Source of the DNA: Lentzea pudingi
GTDB taxonomy: Bacteria; Actinomycetota; Actinomycetes; Mycobacteriales; Pseudonocardiaceae
DNA: 24,000 nt
Assembly (NCBI RefSeq): GCF_014646255.1
Contig: NZ_BMNC01000004.1
Span: 178,480-202,479 of the forward strand
Direction of reading: 5' to 3'
Shown: positions 4,133 through 19,314 of the stretch, piece after piece
Numbering within the stretch: position 1 is the first letter of the stretch
Layout of the letters: each line of letters opens with the position of its first letter
Position numbers and translations under genes: made by a program
Notes under the pieces: generated by a model
Databases searched by the model: none
What the model was told of the DNA's origin: nothing
What the model saw: the letters and a program-made list of their open reading frames with translations, nothing else

Positions 4133-4618
4133 GTGAGGACCGTGCTCCCGAACGACCAGCCCGGCGACGAACCGGGACTCCTCTCGCAGGAGCTGGACCT
4201 GGACCGTCCGAGACCGTCGATCGCGGCGGTCAGGGACTGGACCAGGGACGGGCTGAGCGGCCTGGACGAAGACGTCCTGGAGGACGTCGTGCTGGTGATC
4301 AACGAGCTGGTGAGCAACGCGTTCGACCACGGCCTGCCCCCGCGCCGGATCAGGCTGCACCGGTCCAGCGATCTCCGCCTGGTCCGGGTGGAGGTCGACG
4401 ACGCCTCGCTCGACACGCCGGTCGTGGGCGCCTCACGCCTCAACGCCGACCGCGGCCGGGGATTGATCATCGTCGATCGGCTGGTCAAGGGGTGGGGGGT
4501 CGTGGACCAGCCGGCCGGCAAGACCGTCTGGGCGGAGGTCGACGCGGTGCTTCCAGTAGGTCGCGACGAGCCTTCTCGACACGATCACCCGACGCTGACC
4601 GCCCGCAGCGTGTCATAG
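4133..4618 (+). CDS. RsbW/SpoIIAB-like anti-sigma factor / serine kinase (HATPase_c only)
   Basis: 161 aa. The N-box is 'VVLVINELVSNAFDHG', followed by 'RLVRVEVDDAS' and the G-box-like 'DRGRGLIIVDRLVKGWGV...GKTVWAEV'. An in-frame alternative GTG is at 4142. Confidence 0.8.
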   Translation: MRTVLPNDQPGDEPGLLSQELDLDRPRPSIAAVRDWTRDGLSGLDEDVLEDVVLVINELVSNAFDHGLPPRRIRLHRSSDLRLVRVEVDDASLDTPVVGASRLNADRGRGLIIVDRLVKGWGVVDQPAGKTVWAEVDAVLPVGRDEPSRHDHPTLTARSVS

Positions 4619-4748
4619 AGCGGACGCGGGTCGGCTGGGCCGTGGCCGCGCGGCGGGCAGTCCGGCAGCGGTCGAGCTCGGCGTTGATCATGTGCGGCCG
4701 CGTGGCAGCTCTTACGCTCGGAACGCGTCCTGTCGCACTGAGGATCGA

Positions 4749-5162
4749 ATGTCGTTGCCGAGCAGAAGGCCAGGAACTCCGATGGACCCCACAGTTCGGG
4801 CCGCGTCGGTCACCGTCAGCGCAGCCGAGCACTCCGACGTGCTGGTCGTGCGGCTGTCCGGCGACCTGGACGCCGAGTCCGCCGTCGCGGCGCAGGCCGC
4901 GCTGGTCGAGATGACCGACGGGCTGATCCCGCCCGCACGGGTCGTCCTCGACCTGACAGCGGTGGACCTGCTGTCAGCAGCCGGTGTCCGCGTTCTGCAA
5001 GGCCTCGTCGGCACGTTCGCCGAGCGGAACGTCGGTGTTCGTCTCGCGGCGGACCCGGACAGCCTCGTGCACTCGATGGTGAGGCTTGCTCTGCAGGACC
5101 ACGGAATCGGTGTTCACACCAGCGTGTCAGACGCCCTCCGTGCCAGGTGTTCAGGCAGGTGA
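4749..5162 (+). CDS. STAS-domain anti-sigma-factor antagonist (RsbV/SpoIIAA-like)
   Basis: Track ORF 4692..5162. The STAS core is 'VLVVRLSGDLDAESAVAAQAAL...RVVLDLTAVDLLSAAGVRVLQGL...VGVRLAADPDSLVHSMVRLALQD'. ATG 4749 is preceded by GAGGA, and ATG 4782 is preceded by AGGAA; either could be the start. Confidence 0.8.
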   Translation: MSLPSRRPGTPMDPTVRAASVTVSAAEHSDVLVVRLSGDLDAESAVAAQAALVEMTDGLIPPARVVLDLTAVDLLSAAGVRVLQGLVGTFAERNVGVRLAADPDSLVHSMVRLALQDHGIGVHTSVSDALRARCSGR

Positions 5163-7115
5163 CCACGGCAGGTCGACGAGATCGAGGACGAAGGCCGCCG
5201 GACTGCCGCGGTGGGCGATCAACACCGGTTCGTGGTGATGTGCGGCGAGTTGCCCGGCGAGGTCGTAGAGGATCCGCACGCCCGCGCTGAGCAGGTGGGA
5301 GACCTCGGACAGGTCGACGGTCAGGGGCAGCACGCCGCCTCGGGAGGCGAGGAACAGGTGGCGTGCGAACTCGGTCGAGGTCATCGCGTCCACTGGGCCG
5401 TGCACGCGTACGACCGCCGTGTCCGGGCCTTCCACCGTCTCGACGCGGAACGCCGGGGAGGGCTCCTCGTGCGAGGCGTCGGGGCTCGTGCCGGAGGCGA
5501 GCATCGGGGGTTGGCGGATGCGGTGCCGGAAGGTCACCGTGGTGCCGCGCGCGCCTGGTGGCTCGCCGGCGCGTTGCGGGGGATGGGTGACGGTGACCTC
5601 GTCGACGAGTTGCTGGCACAGCATCAGGCCACGTCCTCTGTCGGTGCTGCCGGGGTCCGCCGCACGCCAGCGGCCCTCGTCGCCGACGCGGAGTTCGCAG
5701 ATGCCGTCGGGTGTCAGCTGTGCGGTGATCAGGACGGTGCCCTGCCGGCCTGGCGGGTAGGCGTGTTCGGCCGTGTTGGTGGTCGCTTCGCCGACGGCGA
5801 ACTCGAGGACCTCCCGGTCTCGTCGGCCCGCGTTGACGCCGGCCAGCCAGTCCCGGATCTCGCGCCGGGCGAGAGCCAGGTTGGAGAGCGTGCTGGCGAA
5901 CCGCACCGACAGCGGTGGCACCGGCTCGGCCAGGCGCTGGACCGCGAGGGTGGTGACGTCGTCGCGGTAGCCGGTGCGGGTGAGCAGGTCGATGGTGAGC
6001 CGGCAGACTCGTTCGACCGCCTGATCAGTCTCGGTGTGGGGCAGCACGCGGTTCATCGCGGCGTCCGCAGCCAGCGTGGCGAGTTCGACAGCGGCTTCGC
6101 CCGGTGTGCGGCCGGGCCGTTCGACCAAGCCGTCTGAGTACAGCAGGACCAGGTCGTCGGGGGCGAGGCGAGCAGTGGACAGAGCGGGGGAGCGGCCCAC
6201 ACCGAGTGGCCCGCTCGTCGGACCGCTCAGGAACTCGGTGGTGCCGTCCGCTCGGACCACGAGCGGCGGTGGGTGGCCGCACGAGCTGTAGGACAACTCT
6301 CCTGTCCGCGGATCGAGCTTGACCACCGCGAGTGTGGCGGCGTGCAGGGCCCGGTGACCCGCGGCGAAGGAATTGGTCTGCTCGAGCGCGCTGAGCAGGT
6401 CGTCGTTGGTGTGCAACAGGAACGCCAGGACCGTGCGCAGCTGGCCCATCGCCGCCGACGCGGTGACGCCGCTTCCCGCGACGTCACCCACCGCCAGGAC
6501 GACGGCGCCGTCCTTCAGCGGGATGGCGTCGAACCAGTCACCTCCGGCGGTGGGGCCGTGCTCGCCGGCCAGGTACCTCGCGGCGATCCTGGCCTGCGGC
6601 AGCACCGGCAGCGATGTCGGCAACAACGCGGCTTGCAGCTCCGCGACCCCACGGCCGCGCCGATCCCGGACCTGCTCGGTGACGTCGACGGCGTACGCCG
6701 AAACGCCGCGAACCGCCCCGTCGTCGTGGAAGTACGGCTCCATCACGAGATCGACGAAGGCCTCCACCGGCCTACCGGCGGCACGATCGACCTGGACACC
6801 CCACTCACCGACCGTGTGCGGCTCTCCTGTGACGTAGACCCGGTCGATCCCGGCCTGGACTCGTCGGCCCTCCAACCCCGGCAGCAGCTCACGGGCCGCC
6901 AGGCCCACGGGTTCGGAGACCCCGGCGAATCTGCGGAAGGCTTCGTTCGCCGCGACCAGCCGCTGCTCAGGCCCTTCCCAGGCGGCGAGCGCCGGCGACG
7001 ACTCGTCGAACCGGTCACGCACGACGTGCGGATCGCCGACGCGCCGCAAGTGCGTGGCGTCGTCGCGCCGCGATTCCGGTCCCATATCCGCTAGACGTAC
7101 CCAGCCTCGCGTCAC
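5151..7115 (-). CDS. Multidomain partner-switching protein: PAS - PP2C/SpoIIE phosphatase - RsbW-like HATPase - STAS (Rv1364c-type architecture)
   Basis: 654 aa. The N-terminus is PAS-like (ALAAWEGPEQRLVAANEAFRRFAG...). PP2C motifs are 'GGDWFDAIPL...LAVGDVAGSGVTASAAMGQLR', 'LLYSDGLVE' and 'YRDDVTTLAVQRL'. The kinase N-box is 'EFAVGEATTNTAEHAY', followed by 'DRGRGLMLCQQLVDEV'. The C-terminal STAS is 'AVVRVHGPVDAMTSTEFARHL...LTVDLSEVSHLLSAGVRILYDL'. An alternative start is the ATG at 7085. Confidence 0.9.
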   Translation of the reverse strand: MTRGWVRLADMGPESRRDDATHLRRVGDPHVVRDRFDESSPALAAWEGPEQRLVAANEAFRRFAGVSEPVGLAARELLPGLEGRRVQAGIDRVYVTGEPHTVGEWGVQVDRAAGRPVEAFVDLVMEPYFHDDGAVRGVSAYAVDVTEQVRDRRGRGVAELQAALLPTSLPVLPQARIAARYLAGEHGPTAGGDWFDAIPLKDGAVVLAVGDVAGSGVTASAAMGQLRTVLAFLLHTNDDLLSALEQTNSFAAGHRALHAATLAVVKLDPRTGELSYSSCGHPPPLVVRADGTTEFLSGPTSGPLGVGRSPALSTARLAPDDLVLLYSDGLVERPGRTPGEAAVELATLAADAAMNRVLPHTETDQAVERVCRLTIDLLTRTGYRDDVTTLAVQRLAEPVPPLSVRFASTLSNLALARREIRDWLAGVNAGRRDREVLEFAVGEATTNTAEHAYPPGRQGTVLITAQLTPDGICELRVGDEGRWRAADPGSTDRGRGLMLCQQLVDEVTVTHPPQRAGEPPGARGTTVTFRHRIRQPPMLASGTSPDASHEEPSPAFRVETVEGPDTAVVRVHGPVDAMTSTEFARHLFLASRGGVLPLTVDLSEVSHLLSAGVRILYDLAGQLAAHHHEPVLIAHRGSPAAFVLDLVDLPWSPA

Positions 7116-7124
7116 CTATGCGTG

Positions 7125-8699
7125 TCAGTCGCTGCCCTGATGGTCAGGGCGCGCGGACGCGGCACGATCGACGCGCTCGTACACCGCCAGCACCTCCTGG
7201 CCGAGCTTGTCACGCGCGTAGCGCGCCATCACACGGTCACGCGCGGCGATGCCCAACTCCTCCCTCAGCGTCTGGTCGGCGAGCAACCGCCGGAGCGTCC
7301 GAGCCAGAACACGAGGTTCACGTGGCGGTACGTGCAGGCCGGTGATGTTGTGCACGACGATGTCCTCCAGCGCGCCCACCGCGGTGGCGACCACCGGGAC
7401 ACCACACGCCATGGCCTGCAGAGCCACCAGGCCATACGGTTCGGCGGTGGGTACGCAGACCACGACGTCGGCGGAACGCAACAAGACGGGCATGCGGGCA
7501 CGGGGGACTTCGCCGGCGAACGTGACCCGGTCCCGGACCCCCAGGTCGTGTGCGAGCTCGCGCAGCTCCTGAGCGACCGTGCTGGACCTCGGGTTGTCTC
7601 CCGCGATCACCAGCTCGACGGTCTCGAGCGCGGGCAGGCACGCGATGATGTCCGCGAAATCGGTGCCGCGAAAGAATTTCCCGACGGTGACGAGACGTTG
7701 CAGCGCTCCCCGGGCGGCGACCGGGCCGTCCGGGTGGAAGTGCTCCACGTCGACTCCGGACGGGATCATGGAGACCTGGATCCGGCGCACGCCCTGTCGC
7801 CACATCTCGGAGGCTTCCGGTGAACTGGCCGCCACGACCCATGAGGCCTTGCGCGCGACGAGCCTTTCGACGTCGGCGCGCTGCTGGATCTCCTGCGCAC
7901 TGACCGCGTTGTAGGAGTGCACGACAGGGATCCAGGTCCGGCGAGAACCGATGGCGGCCGCCAGTCCGGACGTCCAGTGGTGCGTGTGCGCGATGTCCGG
8001 CGGACGCGACCTCCAGCGTTGTGCGAGGAACTGCGCGAACTCTTCGAGGTGAGGCACGACCTCGTCCTCGGTGAGCCGGCGGGCAGGCCCTGCCGGCACG
8101 TGCACCACCTCGTACCCGTCCTCGGTGCGGACGCGATCCGGAGCTCGGGGATCGTCCCGCCGGGTGTAGACGACCACTTCGTGCCCGAGGCCGCGCAGGG
8201 CTGCCGCCAGCTGTGCGACGTGCGTCCCCTGCCCGAGATCGTCAGCGAGCGGGCTGGCCTGCTCGGACACCAGGGCGATCCGCATCGACGCCCGTCCGGC
8301 CCTGCGCGCCACGCGGATCGCGTCCGACAGGGTTTCGTGTCGTGAGAAGTTTTCAGCCAACCCGGCGACCTGAAGCGTTCGCGTGATGTGCGCTCCAGGC
8401 GTGACGAGATGAAGCGGGATGTCACGGCTCCGCGCGTGCTGTTGGATTTCCATGAGCGCGTTGATGCCGGACGAACTGAAGTAGGACACCTGGCCGAGGT
8501 CGACGACGACGGCGTGGGGACACGTCTCCACCTGAGCCGCCAGCTCCGCGACCAGCGCGGGAGCCGTGCTCAGGTCGACCTCTCCCGCAACGGAAACGAT
8601 CGATATCCCGCCATCGAGTGTCGTGCCCACCGACCAATCCTCGGGCACGTCGAAAAGAGGGTCCCGCATCTCGATCGCTCCCTTGTGCCGGGACGTCAT
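7125..8699 (-). CDS. STAS domain fused to a GT4-family (GT-B, MshA/PimA-like) glycosyltransferase
   Basis: 524 aa. The STAS domain (about aa 20-125) reads 'ISIVSVAGEVDLSTAPALVAEL...AVVVDLGQVSYFSSSGINALMEI...IPLHLVTPGAHITRTLQVAGL'. The GT4 part starts at M139 with 'MRIALVSEQASPLADDLGQGTHVAQLAAALRGLGHEV', followed by 'THHWTSGL', 'VTFAGEV', 'ADVVVCVPTAEPYGLVALQAMACGVPVVATAVGALEDIV'. An alternative start is the ATG at 8669, preceded by AAGGGAG. Confidence 0.9.
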   Translation of the reverse strand: MTSRHKGAIEMRDPLFDVPEDWSVGTTLDGGISIVSVAGEVDLSTAPALVAELAAQVETCPHAVVVDLGQVSYFSSSGINALMEIQQHARSRDIPLHLVTPGAHITRTLQVAGLAENFSRHETLSDAIRVARRAGRASMRIALVSEQASPLADDLGQGTHVAQLAAALRGLGHEVVVYTRRDDPRAPDRVRTEDGYEVVHVPAGPARRLTEDEVVPHLEEFAQFLAQRWRSRPPDIAHTHHWTSGLAAAIGSRRTWIPVVHSYNAVSAQEIQQRADVERLVARKASWVVAASSPEASEMWRQGVRRIQVSMIPSGVDVEHFHPDGPVAARGALQRLVTVGKFFRGTDFADIIACLPALETVELVIAGDNPRSSTVAQELRELAHDLGVRDRVTFAGEVPRARMPVLLRSADVVVCVPTAEPYGLVALQAMACGVPVVATAVGALEDIVVHNITGLHVPPREPRVLARTLRRLLADQTLREELGIAARDRVMARYARDKLGQEVLAVYERVDRAASARPDHQGSD

Positions 8700-8784
8700 C
8701 GAGCTGAATGCTTAACCCGAGAAGCCGCTGAACGCTACCGACCGTAGCCCCCTCGCAACGCTGCCCACAAGCCGAGAAGTGTGA

Positions 8785-8810
8785 GTTTGACTTTCGCTGA
8801 GAACGGGTAT
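8785..8810 (+). promoter_or_regulatory. SigB/SigF-type promoter: GTTTGA (8785-8790) - N14 - GGGTAT (8805-8810)
   Basis: Read directly. It matches the general-stress sigma consensus (Bacillus SigB GTTTaa-N12-15-GGGtAt; Streptomyces SigB GNNTN14-16GGGTAC/T; mycobacterial SigF GTTT...GGGTAT). It lies about 75 nt upstream of the STAS gene start at 8886 and is oriented toward the STAS and RsbW-like pair. Confidence 0.5.
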
Positions 8811-8840
8811 GTCCACCGACGACCGATATGCTCAGGAAAT

Positions 8841-8854
8841 CTGATCGCGATCAG
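8841..8854. promoter_or_regulatory. Perfect 14-bp palindrome CTGATCGCGATCAG in the STAS gene leader
   Basis: Read directly; it is self-complementary. It lies between the SigB/F-type -10 element and the GTG at 8886. Confidence 0.3.
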
Positions 8855-8885
8855 TTGGCCATTCGGCAGGGAAGAGGCCTTCGGT

Positions 8886-9251
8886 GTGACTGAGCCAGCC
8901 CCGAGCGTGCAGCCGATTTCCGTCGGGATCAGCCAAGTCGGCGACCAGGTGTCGGTGGCGTCCATCGCCGGTGAGATCGACATGCTGACCGAAGCGGTGG
9001 TCCGGGACGCGGTCCGCTGCCAGCTCGCGGCAAAACCGCGCTTGCTCGTGCTGGACCTGACCGAGGTCGGGTTCATGGCGTCGTCCGGGCTCGACCTGAT
9101 CCTGCAGATCCAAGCTCGCGCGCTTGAACAGGGCACTCGCCTCTCCGTGGTCGCGAACCAGGGTTCCGTGCGCCGCCTTCTGAGTGTGAGCGGCGTCGAC
9201 ACCGCCGTGGACCTGCATCACGATCTCGGCTCGGCTCTGCGGTCGTGCTGA
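8886..9251 (+). CDS. STAS-domain anti-sigma-factor antagonist (RsbV/SpoIIAA-like)
   Basis: Track ORF 8781..9251, but its first 35 codons cover the promoter. The GTG at 8886 is preceded by GGAAGAGG. The STAS core is 'VSVASIAGEIDMLTEAVVRDAV...LLVLDLTEVGFMASSGLDLILQI...RLSVVANQGSVRRLLSVSGV', with a canonical phosphorylatable Ser in the 'ASSG' motif. Confidence 0.85.
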   Translation: MTEPAPSVQPISVGISQVGDQVSVASIAGEIDMLTEAVVRDAVRCQLAAKPRLLVLDLTEVGFMASSGLDLILQIQARALEQGTRLSVVANQGSVRRLLSVSGVDTAVDLHHDLGSALRSC

Positions 9252-9392
9252 GTGGCCGGTCAGAATGTGGATCTCGTGATGAGAACTCAACCGAAAACGG
9301 GTTTGGACTCGCTTTGCAGGTGATTGTGGCGAGAACTGGTCACCGTCGTGGTGAGATGCGGTGGATCAGCGAACGTGGAGGCAAGATCGCTC

Positions 9393-9851
9393 GTGACCAT
9401 CGCCGATGAGGACGCCGCGTCATTGGTCGTCGACCTTCCGGTCGAGCGCGAATCGCTGGTGCCCGATGTGCGCCGCGAGGTCGATGCGGCATTGCGCGAC
9501 CTGGGAGAGGATCACCGTTACGACGTGCTCCTCGTCGTGACCGAACTGGTGAGCAACGTCCTGGACCACACGGCCGGCCCCGGCCGGCTTCGAGTTCTTC
9601 GCGGCGACGCTCCCTGCGAGGTCTCGGTGGAAGTCGACGACACGTCGTCCGCGCGGCCGCGTCATGGCCGATCGAGGCTGGGCCCGCACCGCGGCAAGGG
9701 GATGGTGGTCGTGGGCAACGTCTCGAACGACTGGGGGACGAGACCGGGACCGGAGAGCGGTAAGACCGTCTTCGCGGTGATCCGATGTGGCGACGGTGCG
9801 ACGTCGGCCGCCCCATGCGAGCCCTCGGACGGCGTCCACTACGGAGTCTGA
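9393..9851 (+). CDS. RsbW/SpoIIAB-like anti-sigma factor / serine kinase (HATPase_c only)
   Basis: Track ORF 9324..9851 (TTG start). The N-box is 'VLLVVTELVSNVLDHT', followed by 'EVSVEVDDTS' and 'HRGKGMVVVGNVSNDWG...GKTVFAVI'. I prefer the GTG at 9393, with GGAGG 11 nt upstream; GTG 9375 or TTG 9324 are possible. Confidence 0.8.
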   Translation: MTIADEDAASLVVDLPVERESLVPDVRREVDAALRDLGEDHRYDVLLVVTELVSNVLDHTAGPGRLRVLRGDAPCEVSVEVDDTSSARPRHGRSRLGPHRGKGMVVVGNVSNDWGTRPGPESGKTVFAVIRCGDGATSAAPCEPSDGVHYGV

Positions 9852-11215: not shown

Positions 11216-13488
11216 TTACGGCAGTTGAACGCCGACGACGCAGGTGTCGTCGTCGGTGTTGGACTCGCCGTGTGCGAGCAGGTGGTCGAGCAGCTCGTCC
11301 AGGTTCGACGCCGGCGTTCGCGCTGCCTCGCACAGGTGGTCCAGGCAGTCGTCGAGCGGAACGTCCCTGCGCTCGACCAGGCCGTCGGTGTACAACAGCA
11401 GGGTGTCACCCGGTTCCAGCTGCAGCTGACCCTCCTCATAGGACGGTTCGGCGAGGGCGCCGAGCAGCACACCGCGCAGCATCGGCAGCAGTTCGGCGTC
11501 GCCGTCGCGGATCAGCACCGGCGGCAGGTGGCCCGCGCGGGCCCAGCGCAGGACGCGGGTGTGCGGATCGTAGAGGCCGCAGATCGCGGTCGCGATGATG
11601 TTGTCGCTGAGGTGGTGCGCCACGAGGTTGAGCCACGTGAGCAGTTGCGCGGGGCCGGCGCCGGTGGCGGCGAGCCCGCGCAGTGCGTTGCGCAGCACCA
11701 CCATGCCAGTCGCGCCCTTGATGCCGTGGCCGGTGATGTCACCGACCGACACGAGGATCTGCTTGGTGGGCAGGACGACGGCGTCGTACCAGTCGCCGCC
11801 GACGAGCTCCTCCTGCGCGGCGGGCCGGTACCGCACCGCCACGCGCAGTCCGAACGCGTCGATCGTGGGGTGTGTCGGCGGCATGATCACTTGCTGGAGC
11901 TGCAACGTGAGCGTGTTGCGCTCCAGGGATTCCTGCTCGGTGATCGCGAGCTGGTCCTGCGTCGCGGACAGCGCGACCTCGGTCCAGTGCTGGGCGGACA
12001 CGTCCTGGTACGCCCCGCGGACGGCGAGCAGTTCGCCCTGTGAGTCGAGCACGGGCTCGGCGATCACCCGCACGTGCCTGGTGACGCCGTCCGGGCGTTG
12101 CAGGCGGAACGCCGTCGACGCCTGCTGCCGGTCCCGCAGGACGTTGTGCACGAACCCGTTGAGCGAGAGGACGTCGTCGGGGTGGGCGTGTGCCGCGATC
12201 TCCGCCAGGGGCACCGGATCGGTGCCGGGTGCGAGCCCGTACAGGGCGTACAACTGGCTGTTCCACATGATCCTGCCGCTGTGACGTTCCTCCTCGAAAC
12301 CACCGACACGGCCGAGTCGCTGCGCGTGTTGCAACAGGTTCGCCAGACGGGCCGTCTCGTCCTGCGCCCTCCACACGACCAGGACCAGCGCACCGTGCCT
12401 GGTGATGCTCACACTGGCCGCGACCGTGAGCGGCACCTCGTCGATGAGCGCCGCGAGGGTCATGCGCTCGGCCCGGAACGATTCGCCGGTGGCGTGCACG
12501 TGCTCGATCTTGTCGAACAGGTTTCCTTCGGCCGAGGCCAGCGGGTAGGCCTCCAGCAGTGACTTGCCCGCGATCGCGGAGCGCGGCCTGCCGGCGAGGT
12601 CGACGAACCCGCGGTTCACGTGGTGCACCCGGAAGTCGGCGATCGTGCCGTCGGGCGAGATCTCCGGTCCGAGCACGAGAGCGGGGTCGAGCAGCCCGTC
12701 GGCGAGGTCGACGAGTTCGGACGGCGCCCGCGCGAGATTCGGTGCCGCGGTGCTGTCGAGGGTGGCGGCGCACAGCTGCGCCAGCGCTTCCACCTGTTTG
12801 TGCACGCTCAGGGACTGGGGCGCGAGCGGAGCAGGCCAGCAGATCTCCAGCACGCCGGCGATCCGCCCGCCGGTCCCGGCGGGGACGGCGACGCGGCCGG
12901 GCAGGCCCGGGCCGATCGACGGCAGGCCTGACTCGTCGAGGTCGACGATCCACACGGCGTCCCGCTCGACCAGCGCGCGGCGGGCGGGAGTCGACACACC
13001 GGGCGGGACGTAGTGCCAGCGGCTCGCCTCGCCCGGCTCGAACCCGGCGTGCCCGGCGAGCGTCAGCGACGCGTCGGAACCCGCTGACCAGATCGCCACC
13101 GCGCTCGCGCCCAGGGGTGCGAGCGCGTGGGTGAACAGGGACTGCGCGACGGCCTGCGTGTCATCGGCGCCCAACGCGCCGCTCTCCGCGGTCCGCAGCC
13201 GGACCGCGGTCGTTCTGCTCGGCTCGTCGGGCACCGCGGTGAGGGTGTCGCCGGACACCTCGTTGATGATCTCCACGGCGAGCGTGAGCTGTGTGATGCC
13301 TGCCTGCTCGGCGAGCAGCGCGAGCTGTTCGGCGGCCTGTGCCGGGCCGCAGCGCAGCCGTTCGACGAGCACGCCTTTGGCGAGTTCCACCAGCGCCCGG
13401 CCGTCCGCGGTGGCCCGCACCTCGTCCATCTCCCTGCTGAGCCGGTCGATCGTGCTCACGAGCCGGTTCACGGCAGGCTGACCGGCGG

Positions 13489-13492
<4 letters not shown>
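11216..13492 (-). CDS. ANTAR - GAF - PAS - PAS - PP2C/SpoIIE phosphatase multidomain protein
   Basis: Track ORF 11216..13519. The N-terminal ANTAR domain is 'VSTIDRLSREMDEVRATADGRALVELAKGVLVERLRCGPAQAAEQLALLAEQAGITQLTLAVEIINEV'. It is followed by a GAF-like region and two PAS-like regions ('LVLGPEISPDGTIADFRVHHVNRGFVDLAG', 'GRIMWNSQLYALYGL...FRLQRPDGVTRHVRVIAEPV'). The C-terminal PP2C reads 'VGGDWYDAVVL...VSVGDITGHGIKGATGMV', 'LLLYTDGLVE', 'DDDTCVVGVQL'. The preferred GTG at 13492 overlaps the upstream TGA (GTGA). Confidence 0.9.
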
Positions 13493-18033
<4,541 letters not shown>

Positions 18034-19120: not shown

Positions 19121-19314
19121 CCGGTCTGCTCGTAGGCAGGCCTACCGTGCTCACGCGCACGTGCACGGCGTTGACTCAGTACCCGTCCGGCGTCGATCTC
19201 ACTCCTGAACGGATCATTCGTGACGACGGGCTGCGCGGAGTCGTGCCCTGGGGCCTGCCCGGCGGGTTCGCACAACGGGCCTGCCGCACGGCGGCGCCGT
19301 CCGCTCGCCGCTCG

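Follow-up and report, generated by a model that had tools for sequence, protein, structure and literature searches.

What does a partner-switching circuit control when all of its parts lie in one polypeptide and the adjoining gene encodes a second potential substrate? This question is raised by a stretch of 24,000 nucleotides (nt) from the actinobacterium Lentzea pudingi (NCBI RefSeq assembly GCF_014646255.1, contig NZ_BMNC01000004.1, positions 178,480 to 202,479; the whole stretch is referred to here as the window), which encodes on its reverse strand a homolog of the regulator Rv1364c of Mycobacterium tuberculosis and, directly upstream, a protein in which a STAS domain is fused to a GT4-type glycosyltransferase (GT). 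The analysis presented here favors, with a probability of roughly 0.7, the view that the target gene encodes a soluble Rv1364c-family regulator of 644 amino acids (aa) in which the whole partner-switching module is contained in one chain, with the cycle, the partner, and the promoter that are proposed below. The positions of the features discussed are collected in Table 1.

A preliminary description of this DNA, made from the letters and their translation, had read four domains in one chain in the order PAS, PP2C, RsbW-like kinase, and STAS. Pfam recovered all four from the target open reading frame (ORF), in that order and each above its gathering cut-off, while NCBIfam returned sub-threshold matches only, to anti-sigma and anti-anti-sigma models. 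The motifs quoted at the time (GGDWFD, GDVAGSG, SDG, DDVT, E..TN..EH, and HLLSAG) are all present as written, and an alignment of 120 homologs bears out the statement that the metal-binding and catalytic motifs of the phosphatase and the N-box of the kinase are intact. It should be noted that two residue numberings are in use, one counted from a GTG at 7115 (654 residues) and one from an ATG at 7085 (644 residues); the latter is used below unless indicated otherwise. The PP2C residues D183, D186, D201, D318, D375, and D376 are kept, each Asp being found in 118-120 of the 120 homologs, as are the N-box (E433/N437), G1 box (D469/G471), and G2 box (G484/G486) of the kinase domain, which are invariant in the alignment. 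Equally invariant (120/120) is the candidate phosphorylated Ser of the C-terminal STAS domain, S600 (S610 in the 654 numbering; codon 5286-5288), the presence of which had also been pointed out in the preliminary description and which lines up with the Ser-x-Gly site in the other STAS domains. The aligned Ser of the mycobacterial homologs (654-655 aa) falls at residues 601-602, in the motif DLSxVTHLGSAGV. The equivalence of S600 to Ser600 of Rv1364c is well supported by this alignment, the exact identity of the two positions being taken from the lengths of the proteins.

The likeness to Rv1364c extends from domain order to fold. A sequence search of solved structures returned, for the first three domains, entries of Rv1364c only: 3ke6, which covers the PP2C and kinase domains, matched residues 167-541 at E 3.5e-68, and the PAS entries 3k3c, 3k3d, and 3kx0 matched at about E 3e-22. 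The PAS domain of the target is thereby homologous to that of Rv1364c, which binds unsaturated fatty acids (PMC4159695). For the whole chain, the comparison was made with these Protein Data Bank entries and with a homolog from Mycobacterium colombiense, not with the full-length M. tuberculosis sequence; the M. colombiense protein is collinear with the target over 648 columns including the STAS domain (37% identity, E 1e-108). An AlphaFold2 model of the target (120 sequences; predicted local distance difference test score 86.3, predicted template-modeling score 0.71) had 3ke6 as its top Foldseek match, with a template-modeling (TM) score of 0.91 and a root-mean-square deviation of 2.6 over 376 columns. 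Because the PP2C and kinase domains were superposed as one unit, the model matches 3ke6 in their mutual arrangement as well, and the PAS structures 3k3c and 3k3d matched the model with TM scores of 0.80-0.88. Full-length collinear homology, the fold matches to 3ke6 and 3k3c, the intact catalytic motifs, and the invariant Ser together uphold the earlier designation of the protein as Rv1364c-type.

The length of about 653 aa given for Rv1364c in the preliminary description agrees with the literature, in which Ser600 is the phosphorylated residue (PMC9138534). Ser600 is phosphorylated by the kinase domain of Rv1364c itself and dephosphorylated by its own phosphatase domain, and the protein has been reported to bind SigF as well (PMC9138534, PMC7693655). 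The two proteins thus share the same four domains in the same order, nearly the same length (653 versus 644 aa), the same catalytic motifs, the same position of the phosphorylated Ser, and matching PAS and PP2C-kinase folds. They differ in that the target is about 37% identical, has a linker between PAS and PP2C that is shorter by 16 residues, and reads GDVAGSG where Rv1364c reads GDVVGHG and Leu where an Ala or Gly precedes the Ser. They differ also in their gene neighbors, the Lentzea gene lying downstream of a STAS-GT4 gene, and in the organism, which belongs to a non-pathogenic soil genus. The same logic of a PP2C phosphatase, a GHKL Ser kinase/anti-sigma factor, and a STAS antagonist is found in the RsbU/RsbP-RsbW-RsbV and SpoIIE-SpoIIAB-SpoIIAA modules of Bacillus subtilis, and the Ser of the target STAS domain sits at the position of SpoIIAA Ser58. 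However, the modules of B. subtilis consist of separate proteins encoded with their sigma factor, whereas the target joins these activities in one chain, and the window contains no SigB/F-type sigma gene.

A 2022 review described Rv1364c as unique to pathogenic mycobacteria (PMC9138534). This statement no longer holds, because more than 1,300 homologs of the target are distributed across Actinomycetota. A total of 1,331 database proteins matched the target at E <= 1e-20, and the best 120 of these are all four-domain proteins of 630-720 aa; homologs with the same architecture are annotated as 'SpoIIE family protein phosphatase' in Lentzea, Geodermatophilus, Blastococcus, Actinoplanes, Actinomadura, Pseudonocardia, and Mycobacterium. 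Loci of this type were found in genomes of Geodermatophilus, Actinoplanes, Actinomadura, Pseudonocardia, Dactylosporangium, Mycobacterium, and Thermoleophilaceae. The nearest database homologs are 47-72% identical to the target. Within the genus Lentzea, 14 of 51 genomes had a match at E <= 1e-60, and four carry clear orthologs (57-72% identity). The four-domain architecture is common, and within so widespread a family the target protein is nothing out of the ordinary.

The frame over 5151-7115 on the reverse strand, from which the preliminary description had read a polypeptide of 654 aa, is indeed open for 654 codons from the GTG, and its third-position guanine plus cytosine (G+C) content of 0.86 is as expected of a real gene in the source genome (the G+C content of the window is about 70%). 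The start has to be moved. All of the homologs compared (119/119, in alignments of 14 and of 120 members) begin at a Met aligned with M11 of the 654-aa reading, and two orthologous loci (G048 and G042) have an in-frame TGA between an upstream 'WVR' and the ATG. On these two grounds the real start is almost certainly ATG 7085, and the gene occupies 5151-7085; the public gene call for this protein (P0003) is likewise 644 aa long. GTG 7115 was ruled out as a start, since its 10 extra residues occur in no homolog and an in-frame stop interrupts them in the two loci, and conserved coding of the 'WVR' was ruled out too, these residues being the translated image of a conserved GGGTAC box. With the start at ATG 7085, the gap that follows the TGA stop codon of the STAS-GT gene (7127-7125) is 39 nt, and not the 9 nt that had been counted to GTG 7115.

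Inside this gap lies a promoter-like element of the SigB/SigF type. Its GGGTA (-10-like) box starts 17 nt before ATG 7085 and is conserved at the same distance in 4/4 of the closest orthologs, three of which also have the GCAT (-35-like) box. The mapped promoters of the SigB homologs of Streptomyces coelicolor are built alike, their GGG being almost without variation and their fifth position an A, as in GCATAA-N14-GGGTAT, and transcripts start about 6-10 nt downstream (PMC8346170). GGGTAY is rare in the window, with eight sites on both strands versus about 24 in shuffled sequences, and the sites with a GNNT 14-16 nt upstream number three, all of them intergenic, which suggests a local regulon of the SigB type. 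Direct reading of the sequence revealed no Shine-Dalgarno motif near ATG 7085. The target gene may be transcribed from a stress-sigma promoter of its own that leaves only a few nucleotides ahead of the coding sequence, and so short a leader fits with the missing Shine-Dalgarno motif. A consensus scan detected no sigma-70-type promoter over positions 4600-9400, and neither such a promoter nor an intrinsic terminator or other terminator-like site was found by consensus scan in the 39-nt gap. Because no terminator-like site is present there, read-through from the STAS-GT gene may occur. The preliminary description had taken the start of the gene so close behind the stop of the STAS-GT gene to imply co-transcription; that implication is weakened because the start lies 39 nt downstream and a conserved promoter-like box occupies the gap, and co-transcription becomes one possible arrangement rather than the only one.

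To the domain set, fold, and catalytic residues described above can be added a phosphorylation cycle that is modeled on the literature on Rv1364c. The kinase domain would phosphorylate Ser600 of the STAS domain of the same protein, within the chain or across a dimer, and the PP2C domain, controlled by PAS, would remove the phosphate. Depending on the state of Ser600, the STAS domain would either fill the kinase/anti-sigma domain or make it available to a partner, which would most likely be one of two sigma factors of the SigB/SigF type whose genes lie elsewhere in the genome. A SigB-type promoter in the 39-nt gap, which is probable, would give the transcript its very short leader and close a feedback loop, and read-through from the STAS-GT gene could contribute as well. 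The two candidate sigma genes (SigB/F/G-type, above the TIGR02980 cut-off) lie on contig C17. Separately, one of the two adjoins a 275-codon frame that matches the kinase and STAS part of the target (36%; G000:C17:136319-138307) and that is possibly a fused anti-sigma factor/antagonist beside its sigma factor.

Relatives of the last two domains surround the target gene. Its own STAS domain is closest, within the window, to the product of a free STAS gene at 4692-5162 (35%), and the STAS domain of the GT is closest to that of another free STAS gene at 8781-9251 (31%, E 2.5e-14), behind which lies an RsbW-like gene (9324-9851); between the STAS domains of the GT and of the target the match is weak (E 0.002). 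Because each is closest to a different free STAS, similarity does not single out the STAS domain of the GT as a predicted substrate of the target. In the free STAS at 4692-5162 the phospho-position is taken by an Ala, directly preceded by a Ser, and this gene is conserved in synteny, again convergent, in the closest orthologous locus (L030:3105-3497, G052). The window also encodes two free RsbW-like proteins (4133-4618 and 9324-9851, both on the forward strand) that share 45% identity. Neither of them, as aligned, has the D-x-G of the G1 box where the kinase domain of the target has one, and these proteins may bind partners without acting as kinases.

The STAS-GT4 protein encoded upstream (P0002) carries a Ser, Ser76, that aligns with the phospho-position of STAS domains. 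In its GT4 domain the second Glu of the EX7E motif is replaced by Gln, on account of which the domain is possibly not an enzyme; its GG and GRLxxxKG motifs, too, deviate from the usual form. The conservation of the pairing was followed by tblastn of the domains of the window against loci of the same genus. At 11 of the 14 Lentzea loci (L031, L032, L036-L043, and the window), the Rv1364c-type gene is immediately preceded on its strand by a GT4-like gene, with identities of 35-58% for the GT and 41-72% for the switch. The paired GT proteins, which are still recognized as GT4 by Pfam, fall in two clades, and many of them have neither the GG loop nor the GRLxxxKG motif and lack the first Glu of EX7E. 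The gap between the two genes is 30-40 nt in the orthologous group, where it contains the promoter-like box, and -20 to +21 nt in the paralogous group, which suggests translational coupling in the latter. An upstream GT4 gene was ruled out as a general feature of the family, none being found directly upstream in 30 loci outside Lentzea. A conserved pair of STAS-GT and Rv1364c-type genes was ruled out as well: none of the GT genes paired with the orthologs or paralogs has a STAS domain, and full-length STAS-GT genes in four other Lentzea genomes have no Rv1364c-type gene nearby. The source genome is the only one searched that combines the two.

Orthologs of the STAS-GT gene adjoin other PP2C genes in two genomes, G017 and G021. 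In G017, a close relative, it directly follows an ANTAR-PP2C gene, which in the window lies 2.5 kb away; there (L044:1016-9530), genes for a poly-HAMP kinase (94% identity), an ANTAR-PAS-PP2C protein (87%), and the STAS-GT (64%) are contiguous, and the CorA gene, the free STAS/RsbW-like pair, and the Rv1364c-type gene were not detected in the 17.5-kb stretch. Judged from these gene orders, the island in the window is a mosaic. Two further loci are recorded here in their own right. The GT upstream of the 72%-identical ortholog in G052 (L030:274-1037) matches in pieces, in two frames and without some 90 of its residues; the gene seems to be in decay, and the contig ends just upstream, which leaves any STAS part outside the view. 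The source genome also has a paralog in a 902-codon frame (G000:C1:950237-953569; L048) that is 38% identical to the target over the PP2C, kinase, and STAS domains and is adjoined by a GT4-like gene and further STAS genes.

Table 1. Positions in the window of the Rv1364c-type gene, the domains it encodes, and the neighboring genes and sites
Feature	Position	Strand	Remarks
Rv1364c-type coding sequence (P0003)	5151..7085	-	644 aa from ATG 7085; stop codon 5151-5153
PAS domain	6666..7007	-	Pfam PAS_4, residues 37-150 (654 numbering), 39.4 bits; 3k3c E 2.8e-22
PAS-PP2C linker helix	6633..6680	-	16 residues; modeled as helix 136-154
SpoIIE-type PP2C phosphatase	5934..6512	-	Pfam SpoIIE, residues 202-394 (654 numbering), 125 bits
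RsbW-like GHKL Ser kinase/anti-sigma domain	5577..5900	-	Pfam HATPase_c_2 (RsbW/SpoIIAB type), residues 406-513 (654 numbering), 67.8 bits
C-terminal STAS	5199..5441	-	Pfam STAS, residues 559-639 (654 numbering), 28.9 bits
SigB/SigF-type promoter-like element GCATAG-N13-GGGTAC	7097..7121	-	Inside the 39-nt gap
STAS-GT4 gene (P0002)	7125..8699	-	Pfam: STAS 29-127, then GT4 (Glycos_transf_1 / Glyco_transf_4)
Free STAS gene	4692..5162	+	Convergent; 12-nt overlap with the 3' end of the target
GNNT-N14-16-GGGTAY	8805-8810	+	Before the free STAS gene at 8781 (free STAS/RsbW-like pair)
GNNT-N14-16-GGGTAY	19179-19184	-	Before a GAF-ANTAR gene

Several observations weigh against a self-contained, sigma-directed switch like that of Rv1364c. 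The window is devoid of SigB/F-type sigma genes, the -35 box of the promoter-like element is not conserved in the fifth locus (G002), and the target departs from the 119 other homologs in three features, so that PAS control or substrate handling may differ. The linker between PAS and PP2C, at 16 residues, is the shortest among the 120 homologs (the mode is 32, in 89/120, and the next shortest is 22), and the same gap of 16 residues appears in the comparison with the mycobacterial homolog. In the GDVxGHG motif, H205 is replaced by Ser (codon 6471-6473), where the other homologs have His (110), Gln (seven), or Arg (two), and just before the phosphorylated Ser, A599 is replaced by Leu (codon 5289-5291), where 118 homologs have Ala; both changes are unique among the 120. 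Read together, these features could mean that the target is a derived or partly uncoupled switch, in which sensor control of the phosphatase, or else self-phosphorylation, has been altered or lost through the short linker, H205S, and A599L, leaving mainly a constitutive phosphatase, kinase, or binding protein in a local network of four STAS and three RsbW-like modules. The fragmentary GT gene in the closest orthologous locus, G052, which suggests that the module is in flux, points in the same direction. We regard this as improbable: the frame is intact with its third-position G+C of 0.86, all catalytic and nucleotide-binding residues are kept, linkers of 22-57 residues exist in other family members, and SpoIIE, we presume, naturally has a Ser at the position of H205. 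In its favor, a dimeric linker helix is the proposed allosteric path in this phosphatase family, with predictions that include Rv1364c (PMC12143880).

The other alternatives concern the neighboring gene. The main output of the switch could be the GT4-like protein and not a sigma factor, with the kinase and phosphatase acting in trans on Ser76 or the kinase domain binding the STAS domain of the GT; a sugar-transferase-like protein would then be switched by phosphorylation, in parallel to the action of HenR and Alr3423 on All4160 in Anabaena sp. PCC 7120. The closest precedent for the proposed link is this published case (PMC13555669), in which a partner-switch-like module of a PP2C phosphatase and an RsbW-type kinase targets a sugar transferase at its N-terminal STAS domain, and P0002 likewise has an N-terminal STAS domain (29-127), Ser76 at the aligned position, and a transferase domain. 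The parallel is imperfect in that All4160 carries a 'Bacterial sugar transferase' domain, as opposed to a GT4 domain without the second EX7E Glu, and in that the kinase and phosphatase of Anabaena are separate proteins encoded elsewhere, as opposed to one chain encoded next door; fusions of STAS and sugar transferase domains have been called rare outside cyanobacteria (PMC13555669). Action in trans would account well for two same-strand genes whose 39-nt gap contains no terminator-like site, for the recurrence of the pairing in 11/14 Lentzea loci and in two separate GT clades, for the overlapping or tight junctions of the paralogous group, for the Ser in the STAS domain of the GT, and for the PP2C genes beside STAS-GT orthologs in G017 and G021. 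It accounts poorly for paired GT genes without STAS domains, for the four STAS-GT genes without an Rv1364c-type neighbor, for the 30 loci outside Lentzea without an upstream GT, and for a GT that may not be an enzyme, and the STAS domain of the GT resembles that of the target weakly and the free STAS at 8781-9251, which has an RsbW-like neighbor of its own, most closely. This last resemblance favors a different explanation, that adjacency reflects only shared transcription or the inheritance of an old pair of GT and switch without any direct link between the proteins, the STAS-GT being served instead by the RsbW-like protein (9324-9851) and the ANTAR-PAS-PP2C protein (11216-13519). The gene order in G017, where the poly-HAMP kinase, ANTAR-PP2C, and STAS-GT genes stand together without an Rv1364c-type gene, agrees with that explanation, as does the SigB-type promoter-like box that separates the two genes in the window. 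What argues against it is that the pairing of GT and switch has persisted through deep divergence of both partners with tight or overlapping junctions, and such persistence is hard to explain without a functional link. Each of these two explanations we hold to be unlikely, if to be taken seriously, and action in trans on the STAS-GT, tentative as it is, is plausible and does not exclude the self-contained switch, and the same holds for a changed sensor coupling. Rather doubtful, in our estimation, is the broader proposal that the GT4-like proteins of Lentzea, with their eroded catalytic motifs, are standing partners of Rv1364c-type switches, as ligand sensor, scaffold, or output, and that the copy in the window has gained a STAS domain with which it plugs into the kinase and phosphatase. 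The reading preferred here is still that of a complete switch in one chain, directed at a sigma factor encoded elsewhere.

Rv1364c has been studied as a regulator of SigF in M. tuberculosis, and the family described here makes the one-chain switch a general actinobacterial device that is found in soil genera both harmless and tractable. What is unusual at this locus is the gene neighbors rather than the protein, namely the Lentzea-wide pairing with a GT gene and the unique combination with a STAS-GT; both are of moderate interest, as are the linker of half the usual length and the promoter-like box ahead of the target gene. The linker is a natural variant that could serve as a test case for the published linker model of PP2C control. 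The recurrent GT4-like partner gene in Lentzea, fused here to a STAS domain, may point to an output other than a sigma factor. If that is true, the Rv1364c family would have an output besides sigma factors, and the HenR/All4160 scheme of cyanobacteria would have a counterpart in actinobacteria that is based on GT4.

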